Of a DNA stretch of 46,457 nucleotides, positions 3,423-46,137 are shown piece after piece. The notes under the pieces were generated by a model. It ran no database searches. It worked only from the letters and a program-made list of their open reading frames with translations, and was not told the DNA's origin. Positions within the stretch are counted from its first letter, which is position 1, and the number at the start of each line of letters is the position of its first letter. The translations under genes were made by a program, and so were the position numbers. Source of the DNA: a phage; the NCBI GenBank assembly GCA_026328835.1, contig GCA_026328835.1_4850.1; one strand, given 5' to 3'.

Positions 3423-3522
3423 ATTTACTACTCCTTCTCGAAAATTATTGTTGACCAATCCACATCACTTAGTCAATACTTATTGACGTAGATTGTACCA
3501 CAACGGAAAAGGTGATGTGGAA

Positions 3523-5808: not shown

Positions 5809-5931
5809 ATGAACATAATCCCTATCACTTACTTTCTCACGCTATACGCACTCACCAATTCGCCATTGTTTGCACTGGCTACCGCCTCATGGTGCTATAT
5901 CTCCCTGTGTTATAATTCGTCCACAAACTAA
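5809..5931 (+). CDS. hypothetical small membrane protein
   Basis: hand-translated 40 aa; AGGAGG RBS at 5797-5802. Confidence 0.35.
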   Translation: MNIIPITYFLTLYALTNSPLFALATASWCYISLCYNSSTN

Positions 5932-12037: not shown

Positions 12038-12066
12038 ACTATAAACACCTCACCAATCTACGTCAA
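12038..12066 (-). promoter_or_regulatory. sigma70-like promoter for the minus-strand island
   Basis: minus strand TTGACG (12066-12061), 17-nt spacer, TATAGT (12043-12038). Confidence 0.5.
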
Positions 12067-14792: not shown

Positions 14793-15311
14793 ACTGGTTT
14801 AAGCATTGCCAGCGTGCTTTCTTAATATCCAGTCCCGTAACCCATACATACCCCTACATATGATTGCGATAATGCTGGATATTAAGTGTTGTTGTGGCCG
14901 GTGCTGATCTCCGGCTTGCGGTTATTTCAGACTCTCACGGGCGTTTAATTGCCCCGCCGAACAGCTCTTTTCCGCAATAGCTGCAATGTCTTTCGCGCAT
15001 CAGCCTGCGCATTCACCACAACGGCAAGAACACTGGCTAACCACGCGCGCAGACTCTTCAGGATTATCTGCTCAATGCTCTTACCTGTTGTGTTCCCTGA
15101 CTTATTAATCACACCTCAGGGACGCAGTGCGCCGAATTTGTTTACAAGGAATCGGAATACCTTGCTGACTTACAGGCTATTACGCCGCCATCAGAACAAC
15201 ATCATCGTTTGCATTTGTCTTTGTGGTCAGTTTCTAAAAAGTCCGCAAAGTCGCTCACGAAAACTATCTGAAATACAATCTACACCACAAAATAATCACT
15301 GTCAACACCTG

Positions 15312-15320
15312 TGATATAAT
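15312..15320 (+). promoter_or_regulatory. extended -10 promoter element TGATATAAT
   Basis: TG-N-TATAAT 36 nt upstream of major tail gene; followed by palindrome gttagc-a-gctaac. Confidence 0.5.
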
Positions 15321-16747: not shown

Positions 16748-16826
16748 AACTCACCTCATTTATTCATCACTCGTTTCGATGACTTGAATCTACATCACCA
16801 CCTCGCAGGTGTCAACATCACCGAGA

Positions 16827-16835
16827 TGATATAAT
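16827..16835 (+). promoter_or_regulatory. extended -10 promoter element TGATATAAT
   Basis: identical to element at 15312; upstream block aatctacatcac...gtcaaca also shared. Confidence 0.5.
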
Positions 16836-30244: not shown

Positions 30245-30279
30245 TCATCATCACGTAAATGAATCTACATCAATCTACG

Positions 30280-30711
30280 TCATTCATCAAGTCCAAAATA
30301 GAATAAAGTTGCTTTTTTTAGTTCATCAAGACCGTAAGCGATGGCGGCATAATGACCAATCCTGCACATCTCAGTTAACACAGCGGATTGCTCTTTGCTA
30401 ACCCTGCTTTTGCTTTTATCGCGACGCTTTGCTTCAATCATCCCGCAACCGTGATTCGCACCCGGCGTCATTATCACATTGTCGCCTATTCCAGTCTTAA
30501 CCCCCATCTTCTGGCGCTTCAGCACAAACTGCACCCTGCTTGATGTGCCAGTTTCGTTGGGTACATGAAACCACAGAACATCAGGGAAGCGGTGTTGCAT
30601 CCATGTGCCGTAACCCATCTGGTCAGTCTCCTCCTTCGGACACTCCCCACGATAACCGCTATCAAATACCCATATACCGCTATCAAGCTGCTTCACTTTG
30701 CTCACCTGCAA
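30280..30711 (-). CDS. VRR-NUC domain nuclease
   Basis: GIGDNVIM...GCGMIEAK...S.EQ pattern; next to helicase. Confidence 0.6.
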   Translation of the reverse strand: MQVSKVKQLDSGIWVFDSGYRGECPKEETDQMGYGTWMQHRFPDVLWFHVPNETGTSSRVQFVLKRQKMGVKTGIGDNVIMTPGANHGCGMIEAKRRDKSKSRVSKEQSAVLTEMCRIGHYAAIAYGLDELKKATLFYFGLDE

Positions 30712-37604: not shown

Positions 37605-37633
37605 TTGACGTAGAATCATCATTGATGTAGATT
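37605..37633 (+). promoter_or_regulatory. sigma70-like promoter for plus-strand early operon
   Basis: TTGACG, 17-nt spacer, TAGATT; 30 nt upstream of first early ORF. Confidence 0.45.
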
Positions 37634-39924: not shown

Positions 39925-40368
39925 ATGGCTAATCCAAACCCTGTCATGAAATTTTCCTCTGAGTACCAGCCTGCTGGCAGAGGATTAAGCTACAGAAACA
40001 GGCTTATTGAAGCATTAAAGCGATGTGGGCTTGGCGAAGAGGAGTTTCTTGACGCATTCATCAGGACGTCAATCAGGATGACCGAGGAAAACCCGACTCA
40101 GGGTGTGCAGATGCTGAAGGAGATATTCCTGCGCATCAGTCCCGTGCAGAAAAGTATGGCGCCTCCGGTTAATTTTAAATACCGCAAAGATGCCACGCCG
40201 GTAGAGCAGATAGAGGATGTCATTCAATCTGTTTCCAGCGGTGAACTCCCAATTGACGTGGCGTCTCAGGTTGTGTCTATGATTAAGGTTGGTCTTGACG
40301 TGAAAGAGTTAACCGAACTCGCAGCGCGCCTTGAGCGACTGGAGAAATTACTGGAGCAGCAACAATAA
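39925..40368 (+). CDS. putative terminase small subunit
   Basis: 147 aa directly upstream of terminase large subunit (interrupted by HNH gene). Confidence 0.5.
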   Translation: MANPNPVMKFSSEYQPAGRGLSYRNRLIEALKRCGLGEEEFLDAFIRTSIRMTEENPTQGVQMLKEIFLRISPVQKSMAPPVNFKYRKDATPVEQIEDVIQSVSSGELPIDVASQVVSMIKVGLDVKELTELAARLERLEKLLEQQQ

Positions 40369-40374
40369 CTCATT

Positions 40375-40380
40375 TATAAT
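40375..40380 (+). promoter_or_regulatory. -10 hexamer TATAAT preceding HNH leader
   Basis: TATAAT 7 nt upstream of structured element. Confidence 0.35.
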
Positions 40381-40387
40381 AATCAAT

Positions 40388-40433
40388 GCGGCAAAGGGTA
40401 GCTCCCTGCCCGGATTGGTCTCCGGGCTGCCGC
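40388..40433 (+). ncRNA. conserved structured 5' leader element (copy A)
   Basis: outer stem gcggca/tgccgc enclosing hairpins aggg-tagct-ccct and gcccgga-ttggtc-tccgggc; near-identical copy at 45501-45546. Confidence 0.5.
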
Positions 40434-40471
40434 ATCCAACCAATAGACCGCCTGTAACCGAGGATTCAATC

Positions 40472-40990
40472 ATGTCATCATTAAAAGAGTTGCCACTCAC
40501 TCAAGAAAGACTTAAACATCTCCTGCATTACAATCCAGACACCGGTGTTTTCACGTGGTTAAGTAAGCCAAGCAGAAGAATAAATTCTGGAAGCATTGCT
40601 GGCAGGATAAAACCTAAGAAGGGGTATGTGGAAATAGGAATAAGTGGAAGGATCTATCTTGCTCATAGGCTGGCATGGCTTTACATCTATGGAACTTGGC
40701 CTAAAGAACAAGTTGACCACATTAATGGCATTCGTAACGATAACAGGATTAAGAATTTAAGGCTGGCCACAACATCACAGAATCAGTGGAACAAGAAGAT
40801 GCAAAAAAACAACACATCTGGAATTAAGGGGGTTAGCTGGGATAATCAACGGGGAAAATGGATAGCCCAATGCTGGTTATTTGGCAAGTATCACAAAATA
40901 GGTAGGTTTTCATCAATTGATGATGCTGAACGTGCAATAAGACAGTTCAGGGAGAAACATCAGGGGGAATTTTGCAATCATGGCGCGTAA
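40472..40990 (+). CDS. HNH homing endonuclease with AP2-like domain
   Basis: start MSSLKEL at 40472; HRLAW...DHINGIRNDNRIKNLR; NTSGIKGVSW. Confidence 0.8.
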   Translation: MSSLKELPLTQERLKHLLHYNPDTGVFTWLSKPSRRINSGSIAGRIKPKKGYVEIGISGRIYLAHRLAWLYIYGTWPKEQVDHINGIRNDNRIKNLRLATTSQNQWNKKMQKNNTSGIKGVSWDNQRGKWIAQCWLFGKYHKIGRFSSIDDAERAIRQFREKHQGEFCNHGA

Positions 40991-42404
40991 AAGACTCTCA
41001 AGCGTTGCGATAGAAAAACTTGAGCAAGCAGTAGGCAATTCAACTGCAAAGCCAGAGTCCGCTGTTTTCGGCCTTGTCGATAAGATATTGTCTGACGGTA
41101 CACCAAATGTGGTTAAGTGCCTTAAAATGACAGCCACTGGCGTGTCAGAAACAGACGAGAAGCCAACAATATTAATCCCTGAGCGAATGGAGCTGCTGCT
41201 TTATCCTCGCCGTTTCAAAGTGTTCTATGGTGGCAGGGGAAGCGGAAAGACGGCTAACGTTGTTTCTTACCTTATAGAAAAGGCAAGATTTCGCAACAGC
41301 CGCGTCGGATGCTTCCGTGAGATACAGAACTCAATCAAAGAATCAAGCTATGCCGAGCTGGTCGATGAGATAAACAGGAAGGGGCGCACTCAGGAATATC
41401 GTTGCGTGGATGGCGAGATAACACACCACACAACGAGATCAAAGTTTGTTTTTCGTGGCCTTTGGCGAAACATAACCGCAATCAAGGGCATGGCTGGACT
41501 TACAGATGTGTTCTGCGAAGAATCCGAAAACATCAGTCAGGTGTCATGGGATACGTTAATCCCAACGGTGCGCGCCTCTGGTTCTGAAATTATTATTGTT
41601 TTTAACCCAAATAAAGAGACGGACCCGACGTGGACTAACTTTGTTGAGCCTTACATCGGCAAAATGGTTGACGGCATATATCAGGATGATGACATCGTTG
41701 TTGTTAATGTTAACTACGTCCACAACCCGTGGTTCACGGAAGAACTTAAACAGCACATGAACCAGATGAAGGCTGTGGATTATGATCGCTACCTTTGGGT
41801 GTATGAAGGTAAATTCAACAAACGCAGTGACGAACAGGTATTCGGCGGCAAATGGCGCATTGATAACTTTGAGGTCAAGCCTGAATGGCACGGCCCATAC
41901 TTCGGGATGGACTTCGGGTTCAGTACGGACCCCACTGCAATGGTTGAGGTTTACATCGAAGAACTGCCTGGTGGACGGCGCAACATTTATATTAATCGCG
42001 AGTATGGCAAGGTTGGACTTGAGATTACCGATACGCCAGCCGCGATGGAGCAATCATTCCCGATGGCTAAGCGCGCACGATGGTATGCCGACTGCGCTCG
42101 ACCTGAAACTATCAGCCACATCAAGCGTTCTGGATTTGACATTCACCCATGCACGAAATGGCCTGGGAGCGTTGAGGATGGCGTAACATGGTTGCGCGGC
42201 TGCGACAGTATCATCATTCATGACAGGTGCAAGGAAATGCAAAATGAGGCTGCAATGTACAGCTACAAGGTTGATAAGCTGACTGGCAACGTGCTGACTG
42301 ATATTGTCGATGCATTCAACCACTTCTGGGATGCTGTTCGCTATGCGCTTAATGACCATATCGTCCAGCGCGGTAGTGGAATGCTAATCCGGCGCAGGCG
42401 TTAA
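40980..42404 (+). CDS. terminase large subunit
   Basis: 474 aa; Walker A YGGRGSGKT; C-terminal nuclease-like region. Confidence 0.9.
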   Translation: MARKRLSSVAIEKLEQAVGNSTAKPESAVFGLVDKILSDGTPNVVKCLKMTATGVSETDEKPTILIPERMELLLYPRRFKVFYGGRGSGKTANVVSYLIEKARFRNSRVGCFREIQNSIKESSYAELVDEINRKGRTQEYRCVDGEITHHTTRSKFVFRGLWRNITAIKGMAGLTDVFCEESENISQVSWDTLIPTVRASGSEIIIVFNPNKETDPTWTNFVEPYIGKMVDGIYQDDDIVVVNVNYVHNPWFTEELKQHMNQMKAVDYDRYLWVYEGKFNKRSDEQVFGGKWRIDNFEVKPEWHGPYFGMDFGFSTDPTAMVEVYIEELPGGRRNIYINREYGKVGLEITDTPAAMEQSFPMAKRARWYADCARPETISHIKRSGFDIHPCTKWPGSVEDGVTWLRGCDSIIIHDRCKEMQNEAAMYSYKVDKLTGNVLTDIVDAFNHFWDAVRYALNDHIVQRGSGMLIRRRR

Positions 42405-42420
42405 ATCCACACCACAACAC

Positions 42421-42449
42421 TTGACCAATCTACACCATGCGCATATAGT
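42421..42449 (+). promoter_or_regulatory. sigma70-like promoter
   Basis: TTGACC, 17-nt spacer, TATAGT. Confidence 0.55.
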
Positions 42450-42479
42450 ATCTACATCGGAAACATCGGAGATGCTACT

Positions 42480-42686
42480 ATGCGCAGCTATGCAGGATTT
42501 ACACAGGAGGAAAAAGAACAGGTTTATTCACTGGCGCGCGCTGGTGTTCCTGATGATGTCATATGCCGTCGTTATGATATCGACGAGGATTTCCTGCTGC
42601 GCGTCATTGACGATGTGTTCGTTAACCTGCAAGAGAGGCGCGGATATACTGGCATCTGCTGCAAGAATGATTTTTTGAGAGGGTGA
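42480..42686 (+). CDS. hypothetical protein
   Basis: 68-aa ORF downstream of promoter. Confidence 0.45.
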   Translation: MRSYAGFTQEEKEQVYSLARAGVPDDVICRRYDIDEDFLLRVIDDVFVNLQERRGYTGICCKNDFLRG

Positions 42687-42857
42687 TGTGATGAAAATTG
42701 AGGAAACGGTTAACTGCATGGCGATTAATGCATTTACCGATTACGACACCATTTGCGTGCAAGATTTTACTGGCGATTATGTAAGGCTGGACAAGCACCA
42801 AGCCGCGCAACTCATCGAAGTGCTGCAAAAGTGGATTGATGGCGAGGAGATTGAGTA

Positions 42858-43100
42858 ATGGCTGCTACGATTCTTGCTCTTACCGTTACGGTTTTCTTTA
42901 TTTACATCCTGATAAGAAATCAGTTTGTCTATATTGAGCGCGGCATGTTTATAAAATACTTCTATGAGGAAGACACAGAAGGATATGCAGCAGGTAAGCG
43001 ATTCCATGAGGCGTTACCAAGTTACGACGAGATGCTGTGGAAATTTTGGGTATGGCCTTTGTCAAAATTCTATCCAGCGTACAGAAATCGCAACAAGTGA
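42858..43100 (+). CDS. hypothetical membrane-anchored protein
   Basis: 80 aa; N-terminal TM AATILALTVTVFFIYILI. Confidence 0.45.
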   Translation: MAATILALTVTVFFIYILIRNQFVYIERGMFIKYFYEEDTEGYAAGKRFHEALPSYDEMLWKFWVWPLSKFYPAYRNRNK

Positions 43101-43108
43101 CCATGATA

Positions 43109-43135
43109 TAATCCCCTTAATTGGGGATTTTTTAT
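43109..43135 (+). terminator. stem-loop plus T-run (terminator or 5' hairpin of portal transcript)
   Basis: atcccc-ttaatt-ggggat then TTTTTTATT; overlapped upstream by TGATATAAT 43104-43112. Confidence 0.5.
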
Positions 43136-43141
43136 TGGTGA

Positions 43142-45485
<2,344 letters not shown>

Positions 45486-45494: not shown

Positions 45495-45500
45495 TTACTT

Positions 45501-45546
45501 GCAGCAAAGGGTAGCTCCCTGCCCGGATTGGTCTCCGGGCTGCTGC
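45501..45546 (+). ncRNA. conserved structured 5' leader element (copy B)
   Basis: identical inner hairpins to copy A; outer stem gcagca/tgctgc carries compensatory change. Confidence 0.5.
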
Positions 45547-45585
45547 ATCCAATCAATAGACCATCCTTATGACCGAGGACTCAAA

Positions 45586-46137
45586 ATGAAATCAATAAAC
45601 CGCAACAAAATGCCTGCAATGGCTCGCCTTTCACATCTATTCATTATTTCCAATGATGGAACAATCAAGCGCAGAATTGCTGCTGGCAATAGAGCGGCAG
45701 GCAGCAGCGCAGAAAGGAGTTTGTGTGGAAGTGACTATACATGCATAACTGTTGATGGCGTAAGATACCTAACCCATAGGGTTATTTGGTTCTTCTTTAC
45801 TGGTGAAGAGCCTGATTATCTTGATCACATAAATAGAAACAAAAAGGACAACAGACTATGCAATTTGAGGCCAGTATCCGCCACAGGAAACAGAAGTAAC
45901 ACTGATTTGATGAACAACAACACAACTGGATATATTGGTGTTTATTGGTATTACTACAAAGGAACTCCTAGATGGAGAGCTGCTTGCAACGATAAACATC
46001 TTGGGTATTACAGTTCGCTTGTCTCGGCAGTAAAGGCATATAATCGTTATGTGACAAGTATTTATGGTGATGAGGCATTAGCAAAGGTTGAGCATAACAA
46101 GAGGATGATCAAAGAATCTTTTGGTATTGAACTGTAG
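45586..46137 (+). CDS. HNH homing endonuclease with AP2-like domain
   Basis: start MKSINRNK at 45586; HRVIW...DHINRNKKDNRLCNLR; NTTGYIGVYW. Confidence 0.75.
   Translation: MKSINRNKMPAMARLSHLFIISNDGTIKRRIAAGNRAAGSSAERSLCGSDYTCITVDGVRYLTHRVIWFFFTGEEPDYLDHINRNKKDNRLCNLRPVSATGNRSNTDLMNNNTTGYIGVYWYYYKGTPRWRAACNDKHLGYYSSLVSAVKAYNRYVTSIYGDEALAKVEHNKRMIKESFGIEL

Follow-up and report, generated by a model that had tools for sequence, protein, structure and literature searches.

Between the genes for the terminase large subunit (TerL) and the portal protein, the phage contig GCA_026328835.1_4850.1 (46,457 nt; this whole stretch is referred to below as the window) carries three small open reading frames (ORF1, ORF2 and ORF3) bracketed by a predicted promoter and a predicted terminator. 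The question which this locus raises is whether the cassette is a moron, recently inserted between two neighbouring genes as a first-pass annotation had proposed, or a resident feature of its phage group. Comparison with relatives points to the second: with a probability of about 0.7, the locus is the window's version of a clade-wide operon of small genes, occupying a fixed TerL-portal slot in lytic Skatevirus-like siphoviruses. The description that suits it better is that of an accessory operon which the whole clade carries in one fixed slot, and its noteworthy features are the ultra-conserved, acidic ORF1 with its likeness to sigma region 4, the discrete types of ORF2 and a terminator which overlaps the promoter of the portal gene.

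The slot between the terminase and portal genes

At 46.5 kb, the window amounts to an essentially complete Skatevirus-like siphovirus genome. Over most of the structural half it displays approximately 90% nucleotide identity to the Escherichia phages Bas77-81 and swi2 and to Salmonella phage 64795_sal3, and for TerL the identity to the Vi-typing phage Vi II-E1 is 95%. The TerL gene upstream of the cassette (40980..42404, plus strand) was recognised by the Pfam families Terminase_3 (E 7e-36) and Terminase_3C and by the PHROG terminase large subunit family, and the portal gene downstream (43145..44557, plus strand) by Pfam Phage_portal_3 (E 2e-21) and phrog_146. The interval between the two was taken from 16 relatives, giving 17 loci together with the window, and the promoter, terminator and portal-upstream sequences were read closely in 13 relatives (11 enterobacterial and 2 Klebsiella). 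Counts for gene families refer to phage records in the collection, and the TerL comparison set comprised the 197 records with TerL identity of at least 60%.

ORF1 with its promoter was present in 17 of 17 loci and in 206 phage records, compared with the 197 records of the TerL set, and the slot is clade-wide, which argues against an insertion into this particular genome. Likewise, the flanking genes, described in the first-pass annotation as normally adjacent, are so only loosely, as every member of the clade has ORF1 in the gap and outgroups with a homologous TerL have one unrelated gene there (194 amino acids (aa) in Burkholderia phage PE067; 65 aa in Pseudomonas phage PSA04). The 65-aa gene of PSA04 was considered as an ORF1 homologue and rejected, with an hhalign probability of 0.2%.

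The TerL-portal gap of the relatives ranges from 556 to ~2,290 bp and contains one to seven plus-strand genes, sometimes together with antisense genes; the smallest gap, the 556 bp of ST44, nonetheless contains ORF1 plus a second small gene. Downstream of ORF1, zero to six small genes follow in a fixed order. Clustering of the ORFs placed the plus-strand families in a collinear array of F0 (ORF1), one of F16, F19, F30 or F20, then F11, F2 (ORF2), F4, F13 and F8 (ORF3), ending with the terminator. The array of the window is reduced to F0, F2 and F8, three of the seven collinear gene positions. The gene junctions are short and stereotyped, with a ribosome-binding site in the end of the upstream gene and a stop codon that overlaps the next start (for example GAGTRATG, GGAGATTGAGTRATG and AAAAGGTGGAGTGATG). 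At the ORF2-ORF3 junction of the window, the end of F2 abuts the start of F8 exactly where F4, alone or together with F13, stands in relatives, and this looks like a precise loss. Turnover of the genes behind ORF1 would proceed by whole-gene gain, loss or replacement at such short conserved junctions.

Morons are a concept derived from lambdoid and HK97-like temperate phages (Juhala et al., 2000; Hendrix et al., 2000). Applied in its classical form to this locus, it would have a promoter-gene-terminator unit recently inserted between formerly adjacent genes, expressed on its own and of benefit to the host or lysogen, for example through superinfection exclusion. The locus shares with morons a set of small genes lying among morphogenesis genes and bracketed by their own promoter and intrinsic terminator, and a content that varies between relatives, with ORF2 and ORF3 patchily distributed accessory genes (90 and 43 records, respectively). 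It differs from them in that the slot, promoter, terminator and first gene are found in every relative, and the relatives differ in which genes of a collinear order they carry, not by independent insertions. Furthermore, its composition is ordinary: the GC content of 0.43-0.49 in the cassette, against 0.45-0.53 in TerL and portal, lies within the variation of the genome. Thus, among the moron features examined, an own promoter and terminator were found (as predictions), whereas absence from relatives, a temperate carrier and a deviant composition were not.

As to lifestyle, no integrase or repressor was found among the 90 annotated genes of Bas77, a fully annotated relative, and relatives of the window phage are reported as lytic in the literature. 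Since Bas77 lacks these genes and the clade is described as lytic, prophage expression, which is central to the moron concept, is inapplicable. The category "moron, auxiliary metabolic gene and host takeover" does appear in the BASEL annotation of Bas77, for genes elsewhere in that genome. The first-pass annotation had itself stated what would refute a moron, namely that all relatives share the cassette and that a packaging or structural role is assigned to it; the slot scaffold and ORF1 are indeed conserved in all relatives, while no packaging or structural function has been assigned. The moron description is partly apt, being right in form and wrong in history and lifestyle; as an explanation of the locus it is improbable, and for ORF1 and the scaffold the comparative data have largely refuted it.

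Fast-evolving clusters of small genes are common in lytic phages, and the locus resembles such hypervariable accessory regions in its tightly packed and coupled small genes, its fast turnover of content and its fixed core flanks. Unlike them, it lies inside the packaging/head module, has an ultra-conserved lead gene and ends in a terminator overlapping the restart promoter of the next block. The accessory genes of the slot in a Klebsiella phage include a HigA-like helix-turn-helix protein and an HslV-like peptidase; the other slot genes of the relatives (F4, F11, F13, F16, F19, F29, the Sf11 gp69 gene and others) matched no known function.

In several relatives one or two antisense genes are located between the TerL stop codon and the ORF1 promoter, a position where the window has none. 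One such case is a 50-aa family shared by Skate, Segz_1, seszw and Vi II-E1, another the 186-aa gene of Sf11, and in the fetched loci minus-strand genes of the slot were located at L002 1272-1424, L008 1983-2340, L009 1565-2125 and L005 180-470. The slot therefore takes cargo in both orientations.

The portal proteins of the relatives show a bimodal identity to that of the window (94-99% or 64-81%), and the TerL of NX263 (locus L001, 218-1525) gave no match to the window TerL by tblastn at E <1e-10. Portal identities in two groups and an unmatched NX263 TerL suggest that the core genes around the slot are mosaic, with whole packaging genes exchanged between lineages.

ORF1, the constant gene of the slot

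Where the first-pass annotation had counted two to three small ORFs, there are three. All are judged to be real genes, because each matches one PHROG family end to end and each is under purifying selection in comparison with relatives (dN/dS, the ratio of nonsynonymous to synonymous substitution rates, of 0.02-0.20). The spacing between ORF1 and ORF2 is 4 nt, and the ORF2 stop and ORF3 start overlap in TAATG; given junctions of 4 and -1 nt, and ribosome-binding sites that lie within the preceding gene, the three would be translated as a coupled string. An 85-aa ORF with a TTG start (42421-42678) and three antisense ORFs (42528-42719, 42622-42828 and 42777-43007) were rejected as spurious, since they overlap plus-strand genes with family support and low dN/dS.

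ORF1 (42480..42686, plus strand) encodes 68 aa with an isoelectric point (pI) of 4.8 and is the core gene of the slot, with a full-length PHROG match (E 7e-47) and a dN/dS of 0.03-0.09. It is more conserved than TerL: phages with only 72-86% identity in TerL have 94-97% in ORF1, and across 152 records the 268 nt that comprise the ORF1 promoter and coding sequence show an identity of at least 90%. The ORF1 of Klebsiella phages is only 54% identical to the window copy. The family is narrow: a HMMER search of 1.84 billion representatives returned 15 matches, all from the family itself, and when the ORF1 model was compared with viral models using Foldseek the significant matches were its own orthologues only.

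Several GenBank records annotate the ORF1 homologue as a protein of 113 aa with a start 5' of the promoter, among them Vi II-E1 VIP0003 and seszw gene 63 (L015 2366-2707, L017 2203-2544). Alignment showed that the N-terminal extension of this form is not conserved, and for this reason the 68-aa form is probably the real product.

The genome reduction of the closely related phage seszw, in which 53 of 81 genes could be removed (PMC9825161), provides a further view of ORF1. Among 70 records at least 99% identical to seszw, which comprise the wild type and the laboratory genome-reduced mutants of that study, all 70 have ORF1 and its promoter at an identity of at least 99%, and TerL is kept in the same number. 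In the smallest mutant (37.6 kb) the HNH gene lying two genes 3' of ORF1 (seszw gene 65) is gone and ORF1 is kept. This retention would fit an important function of ORF1.

The predicted fold of ORF1 is a helix-turn-helix of three helices, for which the closest structural matches are sigma region 4 and the helix-turn-helix domains of the LuxR/FixJ type. It differs from these in lacking a profile match, in being acidic, in standing alone at 68 aa and in its conserved C-terminal tail. Comparison of ORF1 with Pfam, including the HTH and Sigma70_r4 families, gave no match at E values up to 1, and with PDB sequences no match below E 0.25. Taken together, the predicted fold, the conservation and the position suggest that ORF1 is the constant, functionally important member of the operon and most likely acts in transcription control, either on DNA or on RNA polymerase. 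If so, this would make ORF1 a compact regulator, specific to the clade and probably indispensable.

ORF2 and ORF3

ORF2 (42691..42858, plus strand) encodes an acidic, soluble protein of 55 aa, matches phrog_13627 over its full length (E 5e-29) and occurs in 90 phage records and in 10 of the 17 loci, with one copy per genome. The family has a length of ~53-65 aa, reaching 70 aa in CF-SP1. Alignment shows a constant N-terminus (MIIE/MKIE), a variable middle of ~25 residues that is barely alignable between types, and a near-invariant C-terminal helix, DKHQAAQLIEVLQRWVDGEEIE, kept even in Klebsiella phages. The AlphaFold2 model (pLDDT, the predicted local distance difference test score, of 64) is confident solely for the helix spanning residues 35-49. 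Within a type dN/dS is 0.02-0.05, and the variable part is itself under strong purifying selection there (dN/dS 0.016); the variants are discrete types and not a continuously diversifying gene.

Three other accounts of the ORF2 pattern were considered and rejected. A tandem array of paralogues is at odds with the single copy per genome, ongoing diversifying selection in the middle part with a dN/dS of 0.016 within a type, and conservation of the C-terminus at the DNA level with the synonymous changes that are common everywhere except in the last ~15 nt. The constraint on the constant part therefore acts at the protein level, as its codons vary synonymously. The last ~15 nt double as the ribosome-binding site of the next gene, which in the window is ORF3.

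ORF3 (42858..43100, plus strand; 80 aa) consists of an N-terminal transmembrane helix followed by an aromatic-rich domain of ~50 residues, and matches phrog_25285 over its full length (E 1e-48), with a dN/dS of 0.20. The membrane anchor noted in the first-pass annotation is borne out by a Kyte-Doolittle mean of 2.49 over the 19 residues 1-19, and both the hydrophobic N-terminus and the aromatic-rich domain are conserved in the alignment. The 43 phage records with ORF3 include 9NA-like phages, in which the related domain is located inside a 117-aa protein encoded in the early region beside the primase gene. This placement fits a non-structural, mobile accessory gene. A membrane-anchored product, and a domain shared with the unrelated 9NA-like phages that suggests horizontal movement, are what a classical moron would lead one to expect of ORF3, and they sit alongside the clade-wide distribution of ORF1, the promoter and the terminator described above.

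Superinfection exclusion or anti-defence activity, the functions anticipated for such a cassette, found no evidence for any of the three genes, with Pfam, PHROG annotation and PDB sequence searches all empty. A Pfam scan of the three ORFs gave no match at E values up to 1. Profile searches of the PDB with alignments of ORF1, ORF2 and ORF3, including the 68-aa and 80-aa products for which the first-pass annotation had recommended HHpred, returned nothing meaningful (best E 0.25). For ORF3 in particular, no known exclusion family was matched in Pfam or among PDB sequences, and phrog_25285 has no assigned function. In the proposed accessory operon, ORF2 and ORF3 would be optional cargo and probably host-interaction proteins, ORF2 soluble with specificity types and ORF3 anchored in the membrane.

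Transcription layout and neighbouring elements

The cassette promoter named in the first-pass annotation was recovered as a predicted sigma70-type promoter, TTGACC-N17-TATAGT (42421..42449, plus strand; -35 at 42421-42426, -10 at 42444-42449), within the 75-nt gap immediately 5' of ORF1 and with a predicted transcription start at ~42456. It was the top promoter-like match of a 7-kb scan, agreeing with the consensus at 10 of 12 positions. Its credibility comes from its position and from the relatives and not from this score: it lies directly 5' of ORF1, the -35 element TTGACC (TTGACT in ST44) is retained in 11 of 11 enterobacterial loci read, and in the two Klebsiella relatives, where the -35 is lost, an extended -10 element, TGCTAGAAT, occupies the same position. 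The counterpart in CF-SP1 is TTGACC-N17-TAGAAT. The promoter begins 16 nt after the TerL stop codon, and between the two no terminator was found.

The motif ATCTACRYC stands once to each side of the -10 hexamer, in direct orientation (42428-42436 and 42450-42458, plus strand), and the Klebsiella relatives retain both copies though their -35 is lost. The motif is enriched across the genome, with 9 copies in the window against 0.83 expected and 13 in Bas77 against 1.03 expected. Nearly all copies are intergenic and lie in promoter regions, often divergent ones, with an extended consensus of cAATCTACRTCA. In addition to the two cassette copies, the window has sites at 3485-3493 (minus strand), 12056-12064, 15278-15286, 16788-16796, 30263-30271, 30273-30281 and 37624-37632 (minus strand). 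ATCTACRYC may serve as the operator of a phage regulator, which could be ORF1, or else as a core element of phage-specific promoters.

Anti-CRISPR operons carry a conserved helix-turn-helix gene, Aca, and the same arrangement could be seen here, with ORF1 as an Aca-like marker that represses its own strong promoter through the two ATCTACRYC repeats and with the variable genes behind it, ORF2 and ORF3 among them, coding for anti-defence proteins. The conserved helix-turn-helix-like small gene, the variable small genes behind it, the repeats around the -10 and the discrete ORF2 types with their constant helix would all suit this arrangement. However, ORF1 is acidic, shows neither Aca homology nor an XRE or Aca profile match and stands first in the operon, ahead of its cargo instead of behind it; the repeats are direct rather than inverted and recur at numerous other promoters throughout the genome; and none of the cargo genes matches a known anti-defence family. 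The BASEL relatives are reported to be markedly sensitive to restriction-modification and to Old (bioRxiv 10.1101/2024.09.12.612763), giving no sign of broad protection, which is neutral to negative for an anti-defence locus. We consider this explanation very unlikely.

At the other end of the cassette, the hairpin seen in the first-pass annotation corresponds to a predicted intrinsic terminator (43110..43135, plus strand) with a 7-bp stem (AATCCCC/GGGGATT), a 6-nt loop (TTAATT) and a T-run. The 50 nt around it (43095-43144) fold at -16.7 kcal/mol (z -3.2), and the stems also pair, free of mismatches, in the relatives, where CCCTC/GAGGG, CCCATC/GATGGG and CCCTTAC/GTGAGGG are found, the last with one G-U pair. 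Each of these four stem sequences is followed by T6-7, as is characteristic of an intrinsic terminator.

The terminator overlaps a predicted extended -10 promoter for the portal gene, TGaTATAAT (TGATATAAT; 43104..43112, plus strand), located 32 nt 5' of the portal ATG. The -10 hexamer contributes to the 5' arm of the terminator, and the predicted start at ~43119 falls in the hairpin loop. Of the 13 relatives read, 12 have the sequence CCATGCTATAAT just 5' of portal, and CF-SP1 has TGCTCTAGAAT instead. Sites of the form TGNTATAAT number six in the window and exactly four in Bas77, where all are on the plus strand and lie 29-45 nt 5' of the first gene of a structural block. All four recur in the window (plus strand): 5908-5916 ahead of the head genes, 15312-15320 ahead of the major tail protein, 16827-16835 ahead of the block that closes with the tape-measure gene, and 43104-43112 ahead of portal. 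The structural genes thus appear to fall into blocks served by extended -10 promoters, suggesting a late promoter class that is independent of a -35 element. The cassette promoter, unlike these, belongs to the -35/-10 class, and the cassette is probably a separately controlled, early unit.

This difference in promoter class also bears on the idea that ORF1 is an accessory factor of packaging or head completion and the cassette a part of the morphogenesis module. A precedent for the position is lambda gpW, encoded between the A and B genes. Yet ORF1 has its own -35/-10 promoter where the structural blocks have extended -10 promoters, it is predicted to be co-transcribed with variable, non-structural cargo, its predicted fold is of the helix-turn-helix/sigma-region-4 kind and not the alpha/beta fold of gpW, and it shows no homology to any head or packaging PHROG. 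A packaging role is unlikely on these grounds.

The coexistence of two promoter classes with an acidic, sigma-region-4-like protein allows a more specific proposal, which we regard as speculative and rather unlikely. In this scheme ORF1, a stand-alone acidic protein made early from its own -35-dependent promoter, would not regulate by binding DNA; it would mimic or bind sigma70 region 4 and shut off -35-dependent transcription of the host, of the early phage genes and of its own operon, freeing RNA polymerase for the extended -10 promoters of the four structural blocks, the one that overlaps the cassette terminator included. If true, ORF1 would represent a new family of early-to-late switch factors, fixed between terminase and portal and leading an operon of swappable cargo.

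For the clade-wide accessory operon favoured here, the following course of events is envisaged from the sequence features. The host sigma70 promoter at 42421-42449 would drive ORF1, ORF2 and ORF3, probably early in infection, with ORF1 acting in transcription control through DNA or RNA polymerase. The cassette transcript would stop at the hairpin at 43110-43135, and because no terminator separates TerL from the cassette, read-through from TerL would stop at 43135 as well. The portal and head block would then restart from the extended -10 promoter; as this transcript is predicted to begin in the hairpin loop, at ~43119, the hairpin could not form in it and the transcript would escape termination.

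Several points weigh against this reading. Across the whole window, 12 sites matched the sigma70 consensus at 10 or more of 12 positions where 11.1 ± 3.2 were expected, so that genome-wide the consensus match alone is at chance level. The helix of ORF1 at the recognition position, EDFLLRVIDD (EDFLLRVIDDVF), is acidic and hydrophobic, and this, together with the pI of 4.8, makes classical DNA binding by ORF1 doubtful. The retention of ORF1 in the seszw mutants is no proof of its importance, and no evidence ties ORF2 or ORF3 to any host target.

If the accessory operon is as proposed, the slot offers a defined and easily engineered place for exchangeable small genes in Skatevirus-like phages, several of which are candidates for the biocontrol of Salmonella or E. 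coli. The overlap of terminator and restart promoter would be a way to embed an accessory operon in a late morphogenesis module and leave the module undisturbed. Current concepts are unchanged by these findings, and database entries for the cassette genes, as hypothetical proteins, already exist for more than 200 genomes.

Rfam gave no match for the region or for the whole window, and no tRNAs were found. Upstream of the slot, an ORF for an HNH/AP2-type endonuclease (40331-40990, plus strand) is located between a TerS-like gene (39925-40368) and TerL, overlapping the TerL start. The presence of an endonuclease at this TerS-TerL position varies among relatives, being found in IME207 and LPST10 and absent from C1 and DS8. 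A second HNH/AP2-type ORF (45499-46137) follows the head-morphogenesis gene. Just 5' of each of the two, in the leader, is one copy of a 63-nt direct repeat (40387-40449 and 45500-45562, plus strand; 95% identical). The repeat matched nothing in Rfam and folds into a closed two-hairpin element (-31.4 kcal/mol, z -2.9), in the closing stem of which the two copies differ by a compensatory pair.

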